DNA from: a bacterium
Lineage (GTDB): Bacteria; Patescibacteriota; Saccharimonadia; UBA4664
Assembly (NCBI GenBank): GCA_016699105.1
Contig: CP064960.1
Coordinates: 328,727-392,726, forward strand
Direction: 5' to 3'
DNA: 64,000 bases
Shown here: positions 3,122-53,875 of the stretch, piece by piece
How the letters are laid out: every line of letters begins with the position of its first letter
Position numbering within the stretch: position 1 is the stretch's first letter
Position numbers and translations under genes: made by a program
The notes under the pieces: generated by a model
Told to the model about the DNA's origin: nothing
The model's database searches: none
Seen by the model: only the letters and a program-made list of their open reading frames with translations

Positions 3122-4146
3122 ATCGGTAAACTGGGATTGGTCGTGAGGCTCAGCGGATCGGAGGTACGCCCTGCTAATGCCAAGTGATAGCCCATGGCGC
3201 CAATCATGGCACCATTGTCGGTACAATATTGGATGGGGGCATAATTCATGGTGATTGGTAACTGTGCCGACACTTCTTGGCGCAGCCGGGTATTAGCTGC
3301 CACACCGCCTGCGATAACGACTGATTTGGGCTGATATTGGGTGTAGGCTTTGCCCAGGCTGGCAACTAATGTCTGACAGACGGTGGCCTGGAAACTGGCG
3401 GCCATGTCGGCTTTCTGTTGATCAGTGAGTAAGGCCGGTATCTGTGTTGAGTGCAAGCGGAAATCAGCACCAACGGCGTGCTGGAGTGCGCGCAAGACGG
3501 CAGTTTTGAGGCCGGAAAAACTAAAGTCATACGGATTATCGAGGCGGGCGATTGGTAATTTGAAGGCTGATTCATCGCCCTGGAGAGCGAGCTTGCCGAT
3601 TTGCGGACCGCCAGGATAGGGTAGGCCAATCATGCGGGCGACTTTGTCGAAGGCTTCACCGGCGGCGTCGTCGCGGGCACTCCCCAGCAAGCGGTATTCG
3701 AGCAGGGATTCAAATAATAATAAATGTGAGTGGTTGCCGGAAACGCTCAGTGATAGGAGTGGAAATTGAGGCTCGGGCTCAATTAAAAAGTTGGCAAAGG
3801 TATGAGCAACCACGTGATTGACGGCGTAGAGCGGTTTGCGGTGGGTGAGTGCCAATGTGCGGGCGGTGAGGGTACCAATGAGTAGACTACCCAATAGGCC
3901 AGGTCCATGGGTAACGGCAATGCCATCGATGTCGTCCCAAGAGACTTTAGCGGTGTCGAGGGCTTCGTGAATGACCGGGAGAATTACTTCTATATGGCTG
4001 CGGGCCGCCACTTCCGGTACGACGCCACCATAGGCTTGATGGATATCAATTTGAGATGCCACCACATTTGACATGGCGTGACGGCCGTCTTCAACGACAG
4101 CCGCTGACGTTTCATCACAAGATGTTTCAATTCCGAGAATGCGCAT
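3118..4146 (-). CDS. tsaD: tRNA N6-adenosine threonylcarbamoyltransferase TsaD (Kae1/YgjD)
   Basis: '[21 protein letters not shown]...' and the overall ASKHA/Kae1 pattern; 342 aa. Confidence 0.9.
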
Positions 4147-4267
4147 AACGAGGGGTAGTATAGCCCAGATGAGTATAAAAATGAAGCGCCCGGCTCTCTC
4201 GCACGATTGGGAGAGAGCCGGGCGAATAGTTACAGCGAGGAAACGTAGCGGCTGCAGGATGTTGGTT

Positions 4268-4780
4268 TCAGGCCGGTCGGGGGTCGAGTGTCATACTCAC
4301 GATACTGAGCAGGCTTTCGTGTTTACAGCCGGTATCGTGAACAGCTTTGGCTATTTCGAATTTGCGGTATGGGCTAAGAGTTGGGCTGCATAGGCGTCCC
4401 TGTACCCAAGCAACTGCCTGTGCGTAAACAGGTAGATTGGCGATGTTGTCAGCTTGGATACTTAAAATAGCAACGACTAGCATGAGCGCGCGCCGGTTAT
4501 CCTTGCAATATGGCACATTTGGTGTGGCCTCGTGACTGCCAATCAGTCGGCGGTAGAGGTATTCGAGTGCAAGTCCAACGGCACCGACTAGCCTGATATC
4601 AGCGTAGTTGACTACAATGCTGCAGGCCAGCAGGTCGTAATACTGTAACCTGGCGTTTTCGCCTTGCAAGCTATCACTCAGGGCAGCATTTATGGTGGCG
4701 GCTAACTGGTTCGGATTTGCCGCCGCCAGAAGATCTGTGATGGCTAAATTTAGGGCGGTCGTATCAGAACGAATTGCCAT
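4268..4780 (-). CDS. hypothetical protein
   Basis: 170-aa ORF with no recognisable motifs. Confidence 0.4.
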   Translation of the reverse strand: MAIRSDTTALNLAITDLLAAANPNQLAATINAALSDSLQGENARLQYYDLLACSIVVNYADIRLVGAVGLALEYLYRRLIGSHEATPNVPYCKDNRRALMLVVAILSIQADNIANLPVYAQAVAWVQGRLCSPTLSPYRKFEIAKAVHDTGCKHESLLSIVSMTLDPRPA

Positions 4781-4993
4781 TGTTTGCCTCTCTTATCTGG
4801 ACGGCCGTGAAGGGTGTGTGTTGACCATGTAGATAGCGGGCATGGCGCGACGCACTGGCATGGATGCGATTGTGAGGGTACGCGAATCTATCACTATAAT
4901 TTGCCTCTCGGTCGGAGATGGACACACAAATTCGTTGAGTTATGGTACGGCTACTTCGAGCGCTTGTCAAAGTATAGGTGGTACAATTAGCCT

Positions 4994-5945
4994 ATGAACC
5001 TGCTTGAGATTAAGGATAAGACAGCTTGGAATGATTATGTGAATGCTCATTCTGGCGGCCATCCCTTGCAATTATGGGGTTGGGGTGAATCCAAGCGGCC
5101 TGGTTGGCGTCCAGTGCGACTAGCGCTGGTTGAAGGAGACACTTGGTCTGCGGCGGCTCAGGTGTTGCTTTGGAAAATTCCGCGTATAAAATGGGTGGTG
5201 GCGTACGTTCCGCGAGGTCCAGTTGGTGCGGCTGAAAGTACTGTCACCCAAGAATTGATGGAACAAGTAATAGATTGGGCTCGGCAGCAGGGCGCCATTT
5301 ATGTACGCATTGAGCCAGCGTGGCGCATGTCCGATTTGAAATGGCCAGGTTTGCGGCGGGCAAAGCACCAGTTACAAATGCGCCAAACATATGTAATTGA
5401 CCTGACTAAGCCGCTTGATGAAATACAAGCGGCGATGAGTCGTAAGCACCGGCAATATTCGGGCAAAGCCCTTCGGGATGGTGTTGAAGTTCGGCGGCTC
5501 GAGCCCGGCGTCATCGGTGATATGTACGCTATCTATCTGGCTACGGCTCAACGAGCAGGATTTGGCATTCACGCTCGCGATTATTATTTGAATTTATGTC
5601 GTGAACTGGGCGCAGCCAGTGTGCTGTATGAAGCCCGTTTTGAAAACCAACCAGTGGCATTTTTGTGGCTGGCTACGGGCGGGGGCGACGGCTTATGAAC
5701 TGTATGGTGGCGTTAACGCAACGGGTCAAAAGATGAGAGCCAATTATGCCTTAAAATGGCGAGCCATTACTGATGCGCAGAATGCAGGTTTGAAGTTTTA
5801 TGATTTTAACGGCCGCGTTAGTGATGGAGTCAGTCAATTCAAGGAAGGTTTTGGGCCAGATGAGGTTGATTTTGTTGGTACTTGGGATCGGGCCAATCGT
5901 GCCGGCAGCTTATGCCTTGTGGGAAGGTCTGTGGCCGGTCATTAA
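4994..5945 (+). CDS. FemAB-family peptidoglycan bridge aminoacyltransferase, apparent frameshift near 5690
   Basis: Two ORFs (4994-5698, 5601-5945) are collinear with the intact paralog at 7891-8946 ('...FYDFNGRVSDGVSQFKEGFGPDEVDFVG' vs '...QYDLLGSPNRDKVGTGVSNDGLYTFKSKFNPEI'). The break is at a G5 run. Confidence 0.7.
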
Positions 5946-42164: not shown

Positions 42165-44492
42165 ATGAGCGAACAGGTAGGGGTAGAGCAGGGGGTTGGC
42201 CTAGCGGGGGATAGTTCCGTTTGGGCAAATTCTATGCGTGAGCTTGATCAGCCTGAGACGGCACCAAATGAGCCGAGCTCCCGTGAGCAGGCGCAGCCAG
42301 TGGTTGACCAGTTTAAGCAACTTGAGCACGATTTTTGTGAGGCGTCCAAAATCATTCGTGCTGAGGAGCTGTTGGAGGGCCACTATGAAGATAGCGACGA
42401 ACCATCGGTAGAGTTAATCGCACATCGACGTGAGGCATTGATGGCAGAAATGGGACGCTTGCGCCAAGCATGCCAGGCTGATCATCCCTTAATTGCTTTA
42501 CGGGCAGAATACCTTACAGTTTGCCTATATGGTCGTATCGATCACAGCTATACCGATGATCGCTTACTCGATGATGATCTACGGCAAGAATTTGATTCGT
42601 ATCGTGACAAGTACGGCAATGGCTATTTTGATGATCAGCCAGAGTCGCTGGATGAGGACGAGAGCCAGAGTTTCAATCTACCCTTTGTTGACGTTTCGGG
42701 TAAAGTAGTCCTACCAGAGCAAGTATACGAGATGGCCAAGAAAGATCGCCCAAGTTTCGTAGGCGTTAAAGCGTTTCAGGTAGCCCGAGATGGAGTAGTA
42801 TTCCTGGCCGAATCGTTGCCGAGAGGTGGCTATGATGCCGTGAACGTGGTGGCGGAGGCCAGGTTAGATGCGCAGCAATTAGACCAAGCCGAAACGGTAA
42901 AACTGCAGCCTTCGCAGTTAGCGCGTTTTGAGTCTGTAGTGCAGCATGGTCGTCTCGATGTTTTGCGCGAATTACTCCAATGGGGGCCAGAGTTCTTGGA
43001 GAAGGGACACATACCATGGCAAAGCCAAGATCGACAAACTGCTACAGAACGGCGTCGTTACTGGGAAGAGCGGATACCAACATTAGATAGTGCTGAGTGG
43101 CGGCTCGTGTATGAGTCAACTGCGGATAGACAATATGATGAGGACAAACCTGTGTCCGTGGATGATTTCCTGCGTGAGGCATCGCTCGGCGAATATCTGA
43201 CTGAGTTAGGGATTGATTCGGGCAAGGCAAACCAGATGCAGGATCAAATGACAACGTATTTGCGCCAGGTACATCAACAACAAAACAAAGAGTTGGCGCC
43301 GGTGTTTGAGGTACATGCCCTTGATACTTCCAATGATACAACGATGCTCTGGCGTGATTTCTTTTTAGAGCCGGGAATGCAAGAAGCGTTGAGTAAACAG
43401 TTTGAACTCGATATGACCTCGATGTCTTTGGCTGCGCAACGACAGCTCGTGGCTTATCTGGGGCGCAGCACAATTGTGGAATTTAACCGGCTTAAACAGA
43501 TAGTTTCTGGGCGGGATGACGAATCAAAGCTTAGCTTGTTTGAATCGTTTTTAGCTTTAGAGCATGGTGACGAGTTTGGTGATAGCCTACTGACGATTGT
43601 CGAGCAATTACCAGAGGAAACATCGCAAGAAATCCTGAGCGAATTGGCAAATATTCGCCAATTGGCACATGAAAACGGTCAAGAATACCACGATTTTGAC
43701 CCTGAGTTTGCACAGCAATTTGAGCAAGCTTGGGTGTCGCGAACAACGCAGGTATTGTTGAATGCCCAAGAACTAGCCGAGGGGCGCACCCCGAGCGTTA
43801 CTAGGTATGATGGAACAGTCAAAACTATTAGCTCGATCGGTGAGGTAACCTGGGGATTACGATTGCTTAGGGACCGGCTGAGCCGGGAGCTGAGTCATTT
43901 ACGCGATGGTGGTGGCGTGATTGAGCGCCAAGACAGTACAACTACTACTATTCGAATGCCTGATGGTGGGTTGGAGCAATTGCGGCCGTATGCCGCTGAG
44001 CAAGATCAGCACGATGAAGAGCATCATTTTGATGATGAGGCACGCGCTAACTCATTGGCCAGTACTGATAGCTGGCCATTTACAGAATCTCGGAATGACC
44101 CCGCCAGAGTTCGGGCGTTAAGTATTCGGATTGATCGTGAGGGTATCTGGAGAAATGAGGCAGGCGAACCGCTGCGGGATCGTCAAAACAAACTCGTAAA
44201 CTTGCCGACAGGCGAGTATGGCTGGGTCTCATTAGATATTGGTGGATTGGTGGGTGAACCGGATGATCCCAATGTGCGTATTGGGGCGTTGATGGCAGCA
44301 GGGGCTGCTATATTTGCCAATCGTCGGGGTCAGGTTTCTCATCAGCATCATGTGAGAGAGGTGTTTGCTGAGCGCTTTGGTCGGAAAGAGGAGTTTGCGC
44401 GCTTGGTTCGCTTTCGGCAGGAGAGGTTGCTGCGACAGATATCGAAGACTGTTTCGCGCCCCGCTTCATCAGAGCAAAAACTTGCCTCATAG
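42165..44492 (+). CDS. large acidic hypothetical protein (775 aa)
   Basis: No recognisable motifs; strongly acidic. Confidence 0.5.
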   Translation: MSEQVGVEQGVGLAGDSSVWANSMRELDQPETAPNEPSSREQAQPVVDQFKQLEHDFCEASKIIRAEELLEGHYEDSDEPSVELIAHRREALMAEMGRLRQACQADHPLIALRAEYLTVCLYGRIDHSYTDDRLLDDDLRQEFDSYRDKYGNGYFDDQPESLDEDESQSFNLPFVDVSGKVVLPEQVYEMAKKDRPSFVGVKAFQVARDGVVFLAESLPRGGYDAVNVVAEARLDAQQLDQAETVKLQPSQLARFESVVQHGRLDVLRELLQWGPEFLEKGHIPWQSQDRQTATERRRYWEERIPTLDSAEWRLVYESTADRQYDEDKPVSVDDFLREASLGEYLTELGIDSGKANQMQDQMTTYLRQVHQQQNKELAPVFEVHALDTSNDTTMLWRDFFLEPGMQEALSKQFELDMTSMSLAAQRQLVAYLGRSTIVEFNRLKQIVSGRDDESKLSLFESFLALEHGDEFGDSLLTIVEQLPEETSQEILSELANIRQLAHENGQEYHDFDPEFAQQFEQAWVSRTTQVLLNAQELAEGRTPSVTRYDGTVKTISSIGEVTWGLRLLRDRLSRELSHLRDGGGVIERQDSTTTTIRMPDGGLEQLRPYAAEQDQHDEEHHFDDEARANSLASTDSWPFTESRNDPARVRALSIRIDREGIWRNEAGEPLRDRQNKLVNLPTGEYGWVSLDIGGLVGEPDDPNVRIGALMAAGAAIFANRRGQVSHQHHVREVFAERFGRKEEFARLVRFRQERLLRQISKTVSRPASSEQKLAS

Positions 44493-45194
44493 CTTGGGCG
44501 ATCTGGGGACTTTCGATGATTGTGCCCATGGCTTCATGCCCAAATGAGATGAACGCGACTTTGTCACCGTAAATATCGATTTCGACAGGCGCTTGATAAT
44601 CTTGTGGCTCGTACCAGGTACGGTTGAGCAGATGTTGTGCATCAATATTTGGGTCACGATTCGCATCTGGTATACGGGGAGTAAGAGCTTCGACGGTAAT
44701 GTTGAGTTTGGTTCGTTTGGCGATGTACTGACTCATGAACTGCGAACCCAGAAAGTCATTTTCAGCCGGTGTACGCATCAGGCTAATAGGTTGGCGGGTA
44801 CGCAGCATATCCTCGTATATCTGGATCAAGCCGGTTTTACCCTGATAGAAGCGGACACCAGGTTGCTCGAAAACGTATAAAAATAGGTCATGAGTTGGGG
44901 CATGAAGTTGCGCAGTCGGGTTTCGTGCTCAATTACCTGATTGCGACGGGATTCCATGAGCTTTTCCAGATTGGCAGGGTTTTCAGGGCGATAGGTCAAT
45001 TTGGAGCCAGTGCCGGATTTGACGGCGAGCGTGAGCTCTTCCAGTTGTTTAAGGACTTCATAAGCGTTGGTGCGAGTAATCTGGATCTTATCTGATAATT
45101 GTGGTGGTGTGAGGGTGCCGTTTGAGATTAGCGCCAGATAGGCGCGGGCTTGGGTTGTGTTGAGGCCGATTTGTTCGAGAAGTGAAGCGTCCAT
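44308..45194 (-). CDS. TrmB-family transcriptional regulator (HTH plus C-terminal sugar-binding-like domain), apparent frameshift near 44828
   Basis: N-terminal winged-helix 'LNTTQARAYLALISNGTLTPPQLSDKIQITRTNAYEVLKQL' and a TrmB-like C-terminal domain in the adjacent ORF. Confidence 0.55.
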
Positions 45195-46055
45195 AGGTGT
45201 AAGTTAGCACAAGCGGGATAAATTGTCAATGAGAAATTGACAGAAAATGGTTTGTTTTTATATCTGTTAGAATGTAATACGCGAGTGACTAATTGACATA
45301 TTAAAGTCCTTGTGGTAAAGTGTGTTCATTCGATGAGGCAGACATAAAATACCTACTCTCGAAAGTCAAGCTAACAATTACATACGTACACATTTGGTAA
45401 GACACGTTCTAGGGTCAGAAGCTCGAAAACGGTCCAAATATAGGTTGAGCCCTTGGGTGTTCCCTGTATCTGGATCGCGAGCGTGTCTTTCTATCGTTTT
45501 AAGGGCAGTTTTAGGACCTTTAAAACCACTAATTGAGATGATCTAGAACTCGGTTAGTACCCGCGAAGGTGCATCTAGTAACGGGTAACAGACGATTAAT
45601 GGACTATTCCTTGGTCCGTCGCACCAAGTACGCGCTTTGTAGCGAGATATCCGCGTGATGATCAGAAGGCATCATGAATGCAGGTTGGCGAAACTATTTG
45701 TTCGCCCGTCACGCGCTATCTCTCTGGAAAGAGAGAAATTTAAAAATCGATCACAAATTTTTGAGCGGAAGCTGCCTCTCGTAATCAATAGTCCCACGCC
45801 AACATGAATACCTGCGCGATCGGATGTACTAGAAGGAATACGGGAGACAGGTTCCACTGAAGGAACCAGTATTTGGGCGAAAGTCCAAAAAAGTACCTTT
45901 TGAAAAGTTGTTTGAATATGGTCGCTGGTCGGCGTTGCGGAAACGTATACGATGGTGTTTTCCCAAGGGGTATCGATGAGAATCGACGCTCGCTGGGGAG
46001 ACGCCAACGGGGCGGATCCAACAATGGGGCAGATGTGCTCCGGAAGGAGGTGGTC

Positions 46056-46463
46056 TTCGTGATCACCCAGACGACCGAGACCACGACCCCGACCGCCCCG
46101 GTGACAGGGCGGCTGGTTCCGCGGCCGCCCGCGGGCCGCAAGGGGGTCGTCAACCCCCGGACCCACGCGGCCACCCGCGAGGCGGCGCTGCTGGACCAAC
46201 TGGCGGCCGAGCTGACCGCCCACCAGGCGGAGGCCGCCGAGGCGGCGACCCGGCAGGGTTTGATCCTGCCACCCGTCGGCCGGGTCATTGACCCGGCCAC
46301 CCTCCGCGAGGAGGGTCTGCCCGAGATCGTGGGGCAGACCCGGACGGTGCAGTCGGCACGGCCTGCGACGCCGCGGCGTCAACCGATGATGCCCCGTAAC
46401 GGGGGGCGTCGCTACAATGGCCCGCTTACGCGGGCCGAGCTGGCGGCAAGGGTCGCCAGCTGA
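46056..46463 (+). CDS. Thr/Pro/Arg-rich hypothetical protein in the high-GC island
   Basis: GGAAGGAGG then GTG start. ~135 aa at ~70% GC. Confidence 0.4.
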   Translation, partial: FVITQTTETTTPTAPVTGRLVPRPPAGRKGVVNPRTHAATREAALLDQLAAELTAHQAEAAEAATRQGLILPPVGRVIDPATLREEGLPEIVGQTRTVQSARPATPRRQPMMPRNGGRRYNGPLTRAELAARVAS

Positions 46464-46764
46464 CAACCAGCCGCAGGTGAGGCAGCTGCGGGATATAAAT
46501 TCCTGCCTCAACGTTCGAGCCGGGTTGACGGCTATGAGCGGGCCAGCGCGAAAGCGCCCGACCGCATCACCATGGGTTGTTTTGACCCAGATCGTTTGAA
46601 CATTTTGTTCACAAGTTCGTTTGTGCCCGCCGAGAGCTTTTCTCGGTAGTACCACAAGGAAATCGTTTCGCGACTTTTTTCGAAAATCGCTGAACGATGT
46701 GGTGCGCCACACTTGTACATTTTTGTACGAATCGGGGAGGTCGGCCAACCGGCCGCTACCTCCC

Positions 46765-46819
46765 CCTGACTTCCGTGGATGCGTATCTGCGTTGATGAGT
46801 CCGAAAGGACGAAAAGTCA
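46765..46819 (+). ncRNA. type-III hammerhead ribozyme motif, copy 1 (C3U variant)
   Basis: Helix III CUGACU/AGUCAG, cleavage triplet UUC, helix I hairpin CGUGGAU-GCGU-AUCUGCG, core 'UUGAUGA' (U at position 3 instead of C), helix II GUCC-GAAA-GGAC, then GAAA. Confidence 0.5.
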
Positions 46820-46934
46820 GACCAGTACTTTGATTAGTGATAGATGTTCCGGACTGGATATTTGTTATTGAGATACACCGATGACAGGTATCCGGTCCGG
46901 GAAGCGCCCAGACCACAAATCCCCTGGAGGGGTC

Positions 46935-47174
46935 ATGCTTTGGAAGACCACGTATCAGGAATCACCGTATGAGAGTACGGGACAGTATGGAGTGTATGTT
47001 TGGCACCGGTTTTTCGGCCGGTGCCAAACAGGATGGCAGGTGGTGCCAATCGCCTGCCATCCTGATGGCGAAAAAAGAATGGATGCCTTTTTGGCTTTCA
47101 TTCGCCAACCGCGGCGGTTCGCCGCGGTGGAAAGGAGGGCAAAAGAGTTGGGCTTCAGACTTGACAAGGTCTAA
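46935..47174 (+). CDS. small hypothetical protein (79 aa) after conserved leader
   Basis: 'CCCCUGGAGGGGUCAUGC' leader/RBS conserved downstream of all three hammerheads. Confidence 0.35.
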   Translation: MLWKTTYQESPYESTGQYGVYVWHRFFGRCQTGWQVVPIACHPDGEKRMDAFLAFIRQPRRFAAVERRAKELGFRLDKV

Positions 47175-47224
47175 CTCTGGCCGCTGATCTGTCGGCTTCA
47201 GGTCAAACGCTGCGCCGAGGGGTG

Positions 47225-47420
47225 TTCAAATCCTCGGAAGTACCAAAGGAACTCAGGTTTAGAACCCGAGTGGTGCGAGACGGGTAACCGGGAGCAACCC
47301 ATAATATGCTCCCCACTCAACCCGAGTGTTTCATATCTTCTGCGTTCCTACCGCCGATTACCGCGTAATCGGCGGGTGAGAGGGGTGATGAAACACTCAG
47401 GCTGGGTGAAAGCTCAGAAA
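47225..47420 (+). repeat. repeat B copy 1 (diverged)
   Basis: Shares 'GCTCCCCAC..AACCCGAG...TTCA.A.CTTCTGC.TTC', 'GTGAGAGGGGT' and 'TCAGGCTGGG' with copies at ~50072 and ~52217. Contains an 11-bp perfect hairpin CCGCCGATTAC-CGC-GTAATCGGCGG (47352-47376). Confidence 0.5.
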
Positions 47421-47496
47421 TGTACCTTCAGTACTAAGTTCACGCGGATGGTCCGCGTGGTGCGTACATGCGCATGGATCACCCTTAGGAGGTGAA

Positions 47497-48423
47497 ATGA
47501 CTGCGTATATGGCATTGGATCCTCGTCCGGCGGCTCGACAGACAATGCTCGAGCTTCTCTCCACCCCGACCTTTGGGGTGGAGGTGACGGTGCCCGAGCT
47601 GGGGTCGGCGTGCCTTCTGGGCAATGCTGACCCCCAGCACACCGGGGGGCGGGCAGATATGTCAGCCATCGAGGGCCTTGCCGCGTTGTTTCGCGGTGAG
47701 GCACAGGTAGCCACCGTGCTGCCTGACCTCGATAGCCTTGGTTCCATGGCGGTGCTGGACATCGCCATGGACGCCATTGCCCAGCTCGGTGCGTTGGCAG
47801 GAGAGATCCTGCGGCGCATCGAGCTAATCGGCCGTGCTGATCGCTTCGAGAGAGGCGAATGGCCCGGTCGGCGACCCCTGCCGACCCTCGACCAGCCGTG
47901 GTCGGACGTGCTTTCGGGCGCGTCAGACACACGCGAGCTTGCGGCCATGGGGGCCGTTGTCGCGGACCACCGGCTGCCGGTGGAGGAGCGGGTGCGTTTG
48001 CTGCGCATCTGGCTCTCCACCGGCGAGGAGCCGTTGGAGTATCGCCAGCGAGTTGAGGCTGAACGGGCCGAGATGCTGGCTGCCCTGACGGGTGGCGAGA
48101 TCTTGGTTCGCGAGGCTGCCAAGGGCCATATCGCCACGGTGGTTTCAACCCACCGGGCTGGCATGGCCATTGGCTACCACCGGGCTCCGGTGGTAGTGGC
48201 GCAGAACCCGGCTTTTAGTTTTAAGGGTTCGGCGCCGGTCGTTAAGTTCACGATAGCCCAGTTCAGAGTGGGTTACGTGGATCTGTCGGCCGCTCTGACT
48301 GAGCTGGCCGGACGTGAGCCCGGCTGGGGCGGATCGCCAACGATTGGCGGCTCACCCCAGGGGGTCTCGTCGGGCTTGTCGCTCGACGAGGTTGTAGCGG
48401 TCGTGGAGGCTCATCTCCTCTGA
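47497..48423 (+). CDS. hypothetical protein (308 aa) in the high-GC island
   Basis: AGGAGGTGA RBS with 8-nt spacing; no recognisable domain. Confidence 0.5.
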   Translation: MTAYMALDPRPAARQTMLELLSTPTFGVEVTVPELGSACLLGNADPQHTGGRADMSAIEGLAALFRGEAQVATVLPDLDSLGSMAVLDIAMDAIAQLGALAGEILRRIELIGRADRFERGEWPGRRPLPTLDQPWSDVLSGASDTRELAAMGAVVADHRLPVEERVRLLRIWLSTGEEPLEYRQRVEAERAEMLAALTGGEILVREAAKGHIATVVSTHRAGMAIGYHRAPVVVAQNPAFSFKGSAPVVKFTIAQFRVGYVDLSAALTELAGREPGWGGSPTIGGSPQGVSSGLSLDEVVAVVEAHLL

Positions 48424-48648: not shown

Positions 48649-48733
48649 GCACTGCCTTCCAACCCCAACTGCACCGGCAGTCATCCGGGACAAGGCGCTC
48701 AAAAGGAAATTGGCCAACAGTGCCAATGCGCGC

Positions 48734-48890
48734 CAGGGAGCGACTCCTCAAGACGCTGAACCACGGTTAATACCCGTTGGTCACTGTCATCGCGACAACA
48801 ACAGGTTTGCCGGTTTCCTCCGCAAGGAAATAACCGGTGCAACTCGGCGGATGTGTATCCGCCCTGACGAGTCCGAAAGGACGAAAGTTG
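48734..48890 (+). ncRNA. ~157-nt structured repeat A, copy 2, ending in a canonical type-III hammerhead ribozyme (48839-48890)
   Basis: Helix III GCAAC/GUUG(G), cleavage after CUC (C48845), helix I GGCGGAU-GUGU-AUCCGCC, core CUGACGA, helix II GUCC-GAAA-GGAC, GAAA. Upstream ~100 nt is near-identical to copy 3. Confidence 0.65.
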
Positions 48891-49028
48891 GCTGTTCTTT
48901 AAAGAGATTCCTCGATATTCGGTTGGTTCTGAGAGTAATTGCCAGGTCGGATATTCGCTATTGCGTGGAGCGATGGCAGATATCCGGTCTGGGGGAATAG
49001 CTCAGGCTACGAGATCCTTGGAGGGGTC

Positions 49029-49493
49029 ATGCGAGTTTTTCGAGAGTTCCGTGTTCGTGCCGGAAGCACGTTAGAGACGGATGGGGTGCGATTCGACGCC
49101 CCTGGACCTTGGGGATGGAGCACCCAGATCCCGTATCCGCGCGGTGGACGTGCCGCGGGTGTGGGGTTAGTGGAAAGTCCAAGTACTTTCCACGGCGAGA
49201 GCCTTGGTTGGCTGTGCAGCGAGAAATCGCTGCGTCTCGGTGCAAGATTTGCACCGAGCTTGACCACAACCCAGCCTTTACCAGGCTGGAAGGATCGGCT
49301 GGCCGAGCTGAGGGGGCTCGAGCAGACAATGCTGGACGCTCTGGTAGCGCTGCTCAGCTGCGAACGGCCCGTAGACCTGCGGGTTGAGTCCCTTGAGCGG
49401 GCGGGGCTGCTCGTGGTGGGGGCGGTATCGTGCTCACGAAGCACGAGCCGGATATCGCCCGACGATTGGGCCTACTGTTCCGTAAGGAGGTAA
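49029..49493 (+). CDS. hypothetical protein (155 aa) after conserved leader
   Basis: The 'CCUUGGAGGGGUCAUGC' leader is the only support. Length is uncertain given assembly indels. Confidence 0.35.
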   Translation: MRVFREFRVRAGSTLETDGVRFDAPGPWGWSTQIPYPRGGRAAGVGLVESPSTFHGESLGWLCSEKSLRLGARFAPSLTTTQPLPGWKDRLAELRGLEQTMLDALVALLSCERPVDLRVESLERAGLLVVGAVSCSRSTSRISPDDWAYCSVRR

Positions 49494-49795: not shown

Positions 49796-50229
49796 TGCTG
49801 TTTCTTGGCACGGTGATGGCTGTGCGGGCTGTCTGGGCTCTATGTAGTGGAAGCTACAAGGGTAAGCCAGCCCGGCGGGGATCGCCAATATGGTATCCAT
49901 TGTGGTTTGCGCTTGCCGCAAGCGTGAGCGTTGCCGTGATGGGGCCATATTTATCGGCTCCGAATGATTCGGGCCCACCGTCAGACGGCTTCTGGCAAAA
50001 CCCGCCCTCTGATCGCGGATCGAAAAGATCAGAACTGCCACATAAGGACTTCGCGAACGCGGAGGTGGCGCAAAACGTATTTACGGTAAAGGGGAGTCGC
50101 CTAAGAGCTCCCCACCCAACCCGAGGGCTTCACACCTTCTGCATTCCGACAACTCATTTGAGCAATCGGAGGGTGGTCGGAGTGGTGGAGCTCTCAGGCT
50201 GGGCGCCAATCAGGTTCCCAGTAGTTTGA
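49796..50229 (+). CDS. small hydrophobic hypothetical protein (extent uncertain)
   Basis: GAAAGGAGGTGG RBS. The N-terminal two-TM segment resembles the 48457 ORF. The 3' part may be out of frame. Confidence 0.3.
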
Positions 50230-51322: not shown

Positions 51323-51370
51323 GAATTCTGGGACAAAACGCGCATAAGGACCAGCTCGTGAGCTGGGCGT

Positions 51371-51528
51371 CAGGGGAGCGACTCCTCAAGACGTTGAACC
51401 ACGGTTAATACCCGTTGGTCACTGTCATCGTGACAACCAAAGGTTTGCCGGTTTCCGCCGCAAGGAAATAACCGGTGCAACTCGGCGGATGTGTATCCGC
51501 CCTGACGAGTCCGAAAGGACGAAAGTTG
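51371..51528 (+). ncRNA. ~158-nt structured repeat A, copy 3, ending in a canonical type-III hammerhead ribozyme (51477-51528)
   Basis: Hammerhead core identical to copy 2. 8 substitutions over ~157 nt between the copies. Confidence 0.65.
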
Positions 51529-51577
51529 TCAGCCAGTTGGTCCGGGAAACGCCCAGACCACGAGGCCCTGGAGGGTC

Positions 51578-51811
51578 ATGCTGCAGCTGGTTTCGATTCA
51601 TTGGGGTCCGCTCGACGAGCCCCACGAGGACGTCATCATTCACGATGGAGTCCCGGCGCGGCGACTTGCCGTGCCGAACTACTACGATGAAGGGCAGACG
51701 GTCGAGGAGTCGATCTTCTGCCCGAGCACAAGGTGGGCAGCAAGTTACATCGCTGCCCTCGTGGCGCGGGGCTATCCCGGCCGGAGCCACATGGCACGGA
51801 TCTTGAGATGA
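51578..51811 (+). CDS. small hypothetical protein (77 aa) after conserved leader
   Basis: The 'CCCUGGAGGGUCAUGC' leader is the only support. Confidence 0.35.
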   Translation: MLQLVSIHWGPLDEPHEDVIIHDGVPARRLAVPNYYDEGQTVEESIFCPSTRWAASYIAALVARGYPGRSHMARILR

Positions 51812-52044: not shown

Positions 52045-52216
52045 ATATCCGTATGACGCCCAGGCTTTTCTGGAGACCCATCCCGAGGCTCAGCGAATGT
52101 AGTAGAGCTGGCCGCACCAGGAATCCGGCTGCACTACCTCCCGGAGGTGCAGTACCAGACCAATACGCCGGAAAGCGTTGAATTTTCCGGAAGTGCCAAA
52201 GGAACCCGTCAAGGAA

Positions 52217-52360
52217 TGGGTGGCGCAAAATCGTTCTACGGTAAAGGGAGTCGCCTAAGAGCTCCCACCTAACCCGAAGGCTTCATACCTTCTGCATTCT
52301 GACTGCTTTATGAAATATCAGCGAGCAGTTGGAGTGATGGAGCCTTCAGGTTTGGTTGAC
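52217..52360 (+). repeat. repeat B copy 3 at right edge of the high-GC island
   Basis: Near-identical to copy 2 over ~85 nt. GC drops to host level immediately downstream. Confidence 0.55.
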
Positions 52361-52435
52361 CAAAATCAGATTGATTGTTCGCAGCCAAAATTGATACTAT
52401 TGGCGAACTTGTAACTACGACAATATCTACTTAAG

Positions 52436-53875
52436 TTGCCAGACGGCGCCGAGGAGCCTACCATAGAACTAGACGTTTGCGGGGGTATTTTGGCCGATTT
52501 GACCGAAAAATGTGGCGTTTTTGGCGCTGTTACTGAGCATAGTTATACCGCTCGGGTGACGTATTATGGGCTGTGGGCACTGCAGCACCGCGGCCAAGAG
52601 GGCAGTGGTATCGCTAGTTGGGATGGCCAGCGCATGCACTCTCGTGTGGGCGCGGGACTGGTGGCGCACGTGTATGATCCAGGAGATCTCGAGCGGCTTG
52701 ATGGGTGCATAGCTATTGGCCACAATCGATATTCGACATCTGGTGCCGATGGCGGGGCACATGCTCAGCCGGTAATTGACCGAGATTTAGATCTGGCTTT
52801 CGCACATAATGGTAATTTGCCTTCTACTAAGGCGCTGGAAGCGTTTTTGCGCAAACACCATATCAATCCACGCCCATTGAATGATTCCGAAATGATGACA
52901 CGGGCAATTGGTGTGTATTTGCGTGACGGGATGAGTCTTGAAGATGCAGTTGTGGCGGCATGGCCGTTGTTTACTGGCGCTTTTTCGTGCGTGGTCATGC
53001 AAGAAGGTCATTTGGTGGCATTTCGAGATGAGTGCGGGATTCGGCCATTGGCTCTGGGAAAACTTGAGGATGGTTACTGTGTATCGAGTGAATCGTGTGC
53101 CTTTGATACAGTGGGCGCCGCTTTTTGCGCGAAGTGAAGCCTGGAGAACTTTGTCAGTCTGACGGCTGAAAAGTGACGGCACGCCAAGTGGTGACGGCTC
53201 GACCCAAATTGGATGTGTTTGAGTTGGTCTATTTTGCCCGCCCTGATAGTTTGATCGCTGGCCGCAAAGTTAATGAAGTCCGGCGGGAAATGGGCAGACA
53301 GTTGGCTCGAGAATTTCCAGTTGTCGCTGATGTTGTCATACCAGTGCCCGATTCGGGGATTCCGATGGCCCTAGGATACAGTGAGCAGAGTGGGGTGCGA
53401 TTTGATCATGGTTTTATCAAAAACCGCTATATTCACCGGACGTTTATTAAAGCCGACACAAGTAATGCGGAGCGGGATGTGCGAGTAAAGCTCAATCCCG
53501 TGCCGGAAGTAGTCATGGGTAAAAGCGTGGTGGTAATCGATGATTCCATAGTGCGAGGAACCACAACCGGGCAAATCGTTGGCATGCTGTATGGAGCCGG
53601 TGCTCAGTGTTCATGTTCTGGTGAGTTCGCCGCCGGTTTTGTACCCAGACTTTTATGGAATCAACACGCCGAGCCAGACAGAATTGATAGCCGCCAATCG
53701 CAGCGTTGAAGAAATTCGGGAGCATATCGGTGCGGATAGCTTGGGCTACCTGTCGGTGACTGGTATGGTAAAAGCAACCGGATTGGCACGTCAAAAGTTG
53801 AACCTGTCGTGTTTACTGGTGAATATCCGATTGATATCGGTGAGCGGGCGCTCACTATTCAAAAAGTTTTACTAG
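52436..53875 (+). CDS. purF: amidophosphoribosyltransferase PurF, at least three apparent frameshifts
   Basis: 'CGVFGAV' N-terminal nucleophile region, 'IGHNRYSTSG', PRTase motif 'VVVIDDSIVRGTT'. Four collinear ORF pieces; start uncertain. Confidence 0.8.

Follow-up and report, generated by a model that had tools for sequence, protein, structure and literature searches.

Tandem hammerhead ribozymes in polycistronic RNAs are known from Clostridium scindens, Azorhizobium caulinodans and Agrobacterium tumefaciens, where transcripts of about 2 kb are cut at every ribozyme in vitro (Perreault et al. 2011, PMC3088659). In the active hammerhead structure C3 pairs with G8, and natural covariation converts this pair to U3-A8 (PMC3088659). 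Besides the U3-A8 covariants, the natural core variants include U4C, which reportedly retains enough activity in vivo (PMC3088659), and the A6C variant of phage Bcep176; certain of these variants stay active (PMC3088659, PMC7151607). In a mutational scan of a type III hammerhead, every single mutant of the CUGA turn was low in co-transcriptional activity, and the swap of the C:G to a G:C pair was the sole rescue (PMC9901934).

Here we describe three hammerheads on the same strand, spaced by 2073 and 2638 nt, in a window of 64 kb (the whole stretch of 64,000 nucleotides that was analysed) from a probable Patescibacterium. As in the arrays of Perreault et al. (2011), several hammerheads of one strand lie within a few kb and flank individual genes that putatively belong to one transcription unit. 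Since tandem hammerheads are already known in three bacteria, the arrangement is a further instance of them. It differs from these arrays in its host, in that the three copies are all type III members of one tight subfamily, in a core defect of the first copy, and in that cleavage is predicted here from sequence alone. This first copy (copy 1), which carries a U at core position 3, is probably a crippled or strongly attenuated hammerhead heading a gene cluster with three hammerheads. Like the natural core variants, it has one core deviation and is otherwise intact and normally placed; unlike the U3-A8 covariants, it has no compensating A8, the compensated form being found in contig L139. In the literature searched, a survey that was not exhaustive, we met no active natural hammerhead with U3.G8.

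Copy 1 as a type III hammerhead

Copy 1 forms a three-way junction in which helices I and II are closed and helix III is open (7, 4 and 7 bp in the structure parse; Table 1). It shares with the Rfam family RF00008 (clan CL00010) the three helices round the core, the CUGANGA...GAAA layout, the A15.1-U16.1 pair, the C17 at the cleavage site and, on the closed helices I and II, the combination of a conserved loop 1 and a GAAA loop 2. The core (C3 U4 G5 A6 N7 G8 A9, G12 A13 A14, A15.1-U16.1 and H17) is canonical except for U3, no second core defect is present, and the alignment to the family covariance model contains 0 non-canonical pairs. Position 3/8 is a U.G wobble, and thus neither the Watson-Crick pair C3-G8 nor the covarying U3-A8. 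In hammerhead geometry the cut falls 3' of nucleotide 17. The original prediction had the letters of the element right, and its U at core position 3 is confirmed in the sequence; its intact helix II and GAAA elements and its 7-bp hairpin of helix I are borne out by the structure parse. Its span of 46765-46819 is one base too low, the base at 46791 to which it assigned U3 is G2.1, and the helix III that it gave as 6 bp has 7 bp once U16.1-A15.1 is counted.

Table 1. Features of copy 1, its flanks and the related elements of the cluster (window coordinates)
Feature	Position	Strand	Basis or remarks
Hammerhead copy 1, type III topology	46766-46820	+	Sequence, structure parse, family covariance model
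Copy 1 helix III, CUGACUU / AAGUCAG	46766-46772 / 46814-46820	+	7 bp including U16.1-A15.1
Copy 1 C17	46773	+	Structure parse
Copy 1 predicted scissile bond, 3' of C17	46773/46774	+	Hammerhead geometry on structure parse
Copy 1 helix I, CGUGGAU-GCGU-AUCUGCG	46774-46780 / 46785-46791	+	7 bp, two G.U
Copy 1 loop 1, GCGU	46781-46784	+	Structure parse
Copy 1 core U3-A9, UUGAUGA	46792-46798	+	Sequence
Copy 1 deviating core base U3	46792	+	Normally C paired with G8 (46797)
Copy 1 helix II, GUCC-GAAA-GGAC	46799-46802 / 46807-46810	+	4 bp, GAAA loop
Copy 1 G12A13A14	46811-46813	+	Sequence
Strong hairpin GGGGAGGUCGGCC...GGCCGCUACCUCCCC, adjoining the 5' side of copy 1	46734-46765	+	Folding
GUACUUUGA box, local form of the family (G)UUCUUUGAA box, 3' of helix III	46825-46833	+	
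24-bp leader hairpin, kept in module 2	46847-46902	+	Folding, alignment
RBS GGAGGGG (46926-46932), ATG (46935), 79-aa ORF	46926-47174	+	Alignment; gene call on L138
Block B, conserved structured leader, hairpin of about 95 nt	47205-47425	+	Also 50040-50222 and 52158-52372
Block A, upstream of copy 2	48727-48838	+	Twin 51364-51476 before copy 3
Hammerhead copy 2, canonical core CUGACGA	48839-48891	+	Predicted cut after C48845
Hammerhead copy 3, canonical core	51477-51529	+	Predicted cut after C51483

We built a family-specific covariance model on 64 members (a 7-bp helix I, the conserved loop 1 and GUCC-GAAA-GGAC). Its matches in the 64-kb window are the three copies and nothing else, copy 1 with 66.5 bits (E = 1.8e-20), copy 2 with 68.7 and copy 3 with 71.4 bits. 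Subfamily members usually score 55-77 bits with this model, which makes copy 1 a match. The 23-nt pattern of core and helix II is present at three places of the window (46792, 48864 and 51502) and in none of 100 shuffles. Furthermore, copy 1 differs from copies 2 and 3 in helices I and III by compensatory changes, and its loop 1 octamer AUGCGUAU, the third commonest octamer of the family, is also present in 12 family members. The proposal of a third, homologous hammerhead-like copy is upheld by the model score, the compensatory helix changes and the unique pattern; judged by its sequence, the element at 46766-46820 (+) is a bona fide type III hammerhead, homologous to copies 2 and 3.

The Rfam model Hammerhead_3 (RF00008, gathering score 48.5) treats the same element differently. 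Copy 1, which departs from RF00008 in its U3 and the wobble with G8, reaches 12.3 bits against 48.5 in a partial alignment and was called neither by the gathering nor by the E-value scan of the window. [quoted passage not shown] The covariance-model check that had been proposed for copy 1 has therefore a divided outcome, the Rfam model missing the copy and the family-specific model finding it; the miss is a matter of the strictness of the Rfam model and not of an absent motif.

Rarity and predicted effect of U3

The T at position 3 recurs in the copy of this element on L138 (NCBI GCA_020047555.1), a contig that was assembled independently, so that a sequencing or assembly miscall at 46792 is unlikely. 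The case of a C instead of T at this position, which the original prediction had raised, is thereby answered in part, and the variant U3 is most likely fixed in the lineage of copy 1. In a covariance-model census of 199 unique family sequences, position 3 is C in 197 and U in two (L092, identical to L122, and L102), both with G8. The other core exceptions of the census are U4C (six times), A13C (once) and one insertion, the core being otherwise invariant; pyrimidine transitions at position 3 or 4 account for nearly all natural core variation of the family. With position 3 left as N, a structural descriptor applied to 0.96 Mb returned C 169 times, U twice and neither A nor G, the two U sites being one sequence found in two metagenome-assembled genomes (MAGs); the descriptor sites outside the seed pattern have C3 in 41 of 41 cases. 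When JGI metagenome contigs were scanned for U3 with either G8 or A8, U3 with G8 gave 0 matches and the single match was a U3-A8 site (L139:304-356), a compensated covariant within the subfamily of copy 1 itself. U3.G8 is present in three independent lineages in ordinary contexts (the window with L138, L092/L122, and L102). The U3 ribozyme of L102 comes after a stop codon and a hairpin and is followed in turn by a U-rich box, an RBS and an ATG.

Folding of copy 1 with ViennaRNA gives the canonical three-helix fold an ensemble probability of 0.005, the third lowest of 121 (family median 0.23); this prediction covers secondary structure alone, and a loop-loop tertiary contact could rescue the fold. 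The minimum free energy (MFE) structure lies 2.7 kcal/mol below the canonical hammerhead fold and has a shifted helix I that pairs U3, U4, A6, U7 and G8. In the U3C back-mutant, made in silico, the canonical fold is the MFE structure with a probability of 0.26. A helix I with two G.U pairs, as in copy 1, is seen in 13 of 143 family members.

The change from C3 to U would thus turn the Watson-Crick pair with G8 into a U.G wobble and in addition stabilise the shifted helix I, and by these two effects copy 1 is most likely dead or strongly slowed. The rarity of U3, the published mutants and the predicted misfolding together make a loss of activity most likely. Of the two options that had been left side by side, a decayed or inactive copy or a substitution in the consensus, the decayed or attenuated copy is favoured over the consensus substitution by the C3 in 197 of 199 sequences, the CUGA-turn mutants and the misfold.

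The gene cluster and the flanks of copy 1

The three hammerheads belong to one GC-rich gene cluster (GC about 0.60 versus 0.50), with a divergent TrmB-like gene on one side and a frameshifted purF-like gene on the other, and copy 1 heads the first of three modules, as had been proposed. After each hammerhead come a shared leader/RBS with an unrelated small ORF and then block B with a larger ORF. A strong promoter-like site is found at 45293-45321, and no convincing terminators were found between the hammerhead copies. Block B precedes ORF308, the pair ORF94/ORF252 and purF; RNAalifold of its three copies gives 57 pairs, 12 of them with compensatory changes, and it has no Rfam match. Block A together with the hammerhead (48727-48890 versus 51364-51528) is 95-97% identical between copies 2 and 3, next to unrelated genes, which suggests recent duplication or gene conversion. 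The match that includes the hammerhead has 95% identity over 165 nt, and block A by itself is about 95% identical. This block of about 110 nt is missing upstream of copy 1, in line with the earlier remark that a 5' element of about 100 nt is lacking there. Strain contigs spanning copies 2 and 3 were not found.

The purF-like gene (52436-53875) is spread over three frames (52436-53137, 53173-53709 and 53579-53875), and the TrmB-like regulator (44308-45194) lies in two pieces; both genes are pseudogenes or the result of indel errors in the assembly. A repeat of 45157-45190 at 52485-52518 was considered as a target-site duplication in purF and rejected, since the identity is only 74% over 34 nt and the left copy lies inside the TrmB-like gene on the other strand.

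Copy 1 itself has the context typical of the subfamily: it is intergenic and co-directional with its neighbours, the upstream ORF with a coding-like GC pattern stopping at 46463, and a U-rich box, RBS/ATG (46926-46937) and ORF follow. A minus-strand ORF of 414 aa over the motif (45672-46916) was set aside as probably spurious, its GC by codon position not being coding-like. The 40 nt upstream of copy 1 fold at -25.2 kcal/mol, and the hairpin is also part of the MFE structure of 46728-46830. Weaker analogous hairpins precede copies 2 and 3 (-14.5 and -12.7). An upstream hairpin as a rule of the family found no support (MFE of the 40 nt upstream versus control, p = 0.78). At copy 2 the box 3' of the hammerhead reads UGUUCUUUAAA (48896-48906); the box GAAGTRCCAAAGGA was not found in the other loci in which it was sought. 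The region 46820-46940 has an MFE of -47.8 kcal/mol (z = -4.65). The alignments agree with the earlier description of a conserved leader/RBS and a small ORF after copy 1: 46856-46939 corresponds to 48949-49032 and 46894-46939 to 51539-51582, and the ORF is an orphan of 79 aa. Its GC by codon position is 0.55/0.45/0.59, and no homologue was found beyond its own cluster and none from which the ancestral hammerhead could be recovered.

Contig L138 (1-1394) aligns with 46424-47817 of the window. The first 238 nt are about 90% identical (23 differences), and 46662-47255 is 99.7% identical with 2 differences, one of which (G46768A) places an A.C mismatch in helix III of copy 1. This near-identity could reflect constraint or recent transfer. 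Past 47255, immediately after a conserved box GAAGTACCAAAGGAAC that is also present at 52190-52203, L138 is unrelated; the two sequences may part here at the edge of a cassette or a recombination point, or L138 may be a chimera assembled across a repeat.

Among the proteins of the cluster, ORF308 (47497-48423), the nearest large gene on the downstream side of copy 1, belongs to a widespread CPR family that carries no annotation. It has no Pfam match, and its AlphaFold model (pLDDT 89.7) weakly resembles the DHH phosphoesterases RecJ2, NrnA and PggH (TM about 0.3). A homologue of 310 aa, 67% identical to ORF308 of the window, is encoded 22 nt downstream of a U4C hammerhead (L140:347-399 = L141:146-198) that itself stands behind a promoter-like site; other U4C copies of the family are found in L036, L044, L045 and, twice, in L081. 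In L142 an ORF308 homologue is situated amid genes for a T4SS coupling protein, RadC, Fic and HTH proteins. In searches against Pfam, PHROGs and NCBIfam no confident domain was found in the ORFs of the island, the sole match being a weak, cold-shock-like one at the N-terminus of a 94-aa ORF. A 775-aa ORF (42165-44492) downstream of a sigma-70 fragment has no match in Pfam, PHROG or NCBIfam.

The CPR hammerhead subfamily and the possible role of copy 1

The exact core/helix II pattern YTGAYGAGTCCGAAAGGACGAAA was sought in a single genome of each species. It matched 115 stretches, often 2-3 times per few kb, and almost all of these stretches came from Patescibacteria/CPR MAGs (Saccharibacteria, Parcubacteria/Paceibacteria and relatives). 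About 199 unique copies are contained in roughly 0.95 Mb (the genome contigs L020-L134 and, for a minority of the copies, the viral contigs L001-L018). They stand mostly right behind genes and at times in dense arrays, and most of them fall below the Rfam threshold. Helix I comprises 7 bp and carries a conserved loop region, for example AUGUGUAU; helix III has mostly 4-6 bp and at most 9 bp, and the helix II hairpin is identical by design of the search pattern. The cleavage-site nucleotide N17 is C in 101, U in 21, A in 13 and G in 0 cases. The elements begin at a median of 68 nt past the stop of an ORF on the same strand, and a short U-rich box, an RBS and an ORF often, not always, follow; of 140 family hammerheads, 27 have a box like GUUCUUUGAA in the 22 nt that follow, as compared to 36 of 5000 random windows (0.7%). 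No paper that links hammerheads to Patescibacteria/CPR was found in the literature searched.

The same helix II also appears in other settings. One Parcubacteria MAG (L026, 2475-3826 and 5889-6528) has about ten hammerheads in 4 kb, 130-440 nt apart, that flank a DinG-like helicase gene (3860-5638); convincing ORFs between the hammerheads were not seen, and the array looks like ribozyme-delimited non-coding units. In the viral contigs L004, L006, L011 and L018, hammerheads with this helix II come right after putative tRNA 3' ends, with T-arm-like sequences such as GGTTCAAACCCC directly upstream. Three IMG/VR contigs of 322-457 nt (L008, L009 and L019), which resemble plant-virus satellite RNAs, have a helix II/loop 2 (GUCC-GAAA-GGAC) identical to that of copy 1, and in two of them, L008 and L019, loop 1 is similar as well (GUGUGUA / GUGCGUA). 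They are whole small replicons, unlike copy 1, which is a chromosomal intergenic element.

By analogy with the tandem bacterial hammerheads (Perreault et al. 2011), we infer that the hammerheads of the cluster may process its transcript. Cleavage of the long transcript would fall immediately 5' of helix I and free an upstream RNA that ends in a 2',3'-cyclic phosphate; the downstream mRNA would begin with a 5'-OH and keep the folded ribozyme at that end. At copy 1 the hairpin 46734-46765 would become the 3'-terminal structure of the upstream product. In this manner three ribozymes would punctuate the GC-rich cluster as it runs toward the purF-like gene.

For copy 1, a crippled or strongly attenuated hammerhead is the reading that we favour. 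That it is attenuated and still functional, with U3.G8 cutting slowly or conditionally and partial processing setting the ratio of joined to separated transcripts, appears doubtful to us, even though several observations are consistent with it. The recurrence of U3.G8 in three lineages with normal operon contexts, a family core that varies almost solely at positions 3 and 4, the U4C hammerhead 22 nt before the ORF308 homologue in L140/L141, the integrity of copy 1 apart from U3 in two strains with no further core defect acquired, and the near-identity of 46662-47255 with L138 next to a more divergent upstream part all point this way, as do the natural core variants with activity (PMC3088659, PMC7151607); with U4C tolerated in vivo, U3 might be partly tolerated too. 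However, U3.G8 is found in just 2 of 199 unique members and 0 times in the metagenome scan, single mutants of the CUGA turn are low in activity (PMC9901934), the canonical fold is predicted at 0.005, and the link to the ORF308 family holds in 2 of 3 cases and was spotted post hoc. A broader version, which we regard as unlikely, would see in copy 1 a selected, naturally attenuated U3.G8 hammerhead that represents one setting of a dial, with U4C in a relative as another, in a system of recombining cassettes. Type III hammerheads would then punctuate operons of Patescibacteria in short cassettes (hairpin, ribozyme, U-rich box, leader, ORF), and these cassettes would recombine between genomes; a description of such a system was not found in the literature searched.

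Quite improbable in our view is the exaptation of copy 1 as a non-catalytic, hammerhead-shaped module of a 5'-UTR or intergenic region (a stabilising fold or a protein site) in a recombining cassette. The unit of hairpin, hammerhead, leader, ORF79 and terminal box (46662-47255) is almost identical in L138 between flanks that differ, being 10% divergent upstream and unrelated downstream of 47255, and strong hairpins stand on both sides of copy 1. Yet a chimeric join at a repeat could account for the junction in L138, the alternative function has no supporting evidence, and the conserved features are exactly those that catalysis needs. An artefact, in the form of a sequencing or assembly error at T46792 or a motif that arose by chance, is hardly credible: the purF-like gene and the TrmB-like pair look frameshifted and indicate an imperfect assembly quality, but frameshifts point to indel errors and not to substitutions, the same T is present in an independent contig of a different assembly, and chance is excluded by the 0 of 100 shuffles and the family model score.

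Taken alone, copy 1 adds little, being a further hammerhead whose core is defective. It does show that a whole subfamily escapes the Rfam thresholds, and, with U3.G8 and U3-A8 present in one scaffold, nature offers a clean test of the C3-G8 pair. The wider CPR subfamily is a more interesting lead than copy 1 itself. Should operon transcripts be processed by these ribozymes, RNA-processing functions in the reduced CPR genomes may be taken over by them, and the core variants of the ribozymes would show which degree of cleavage each junction needs.
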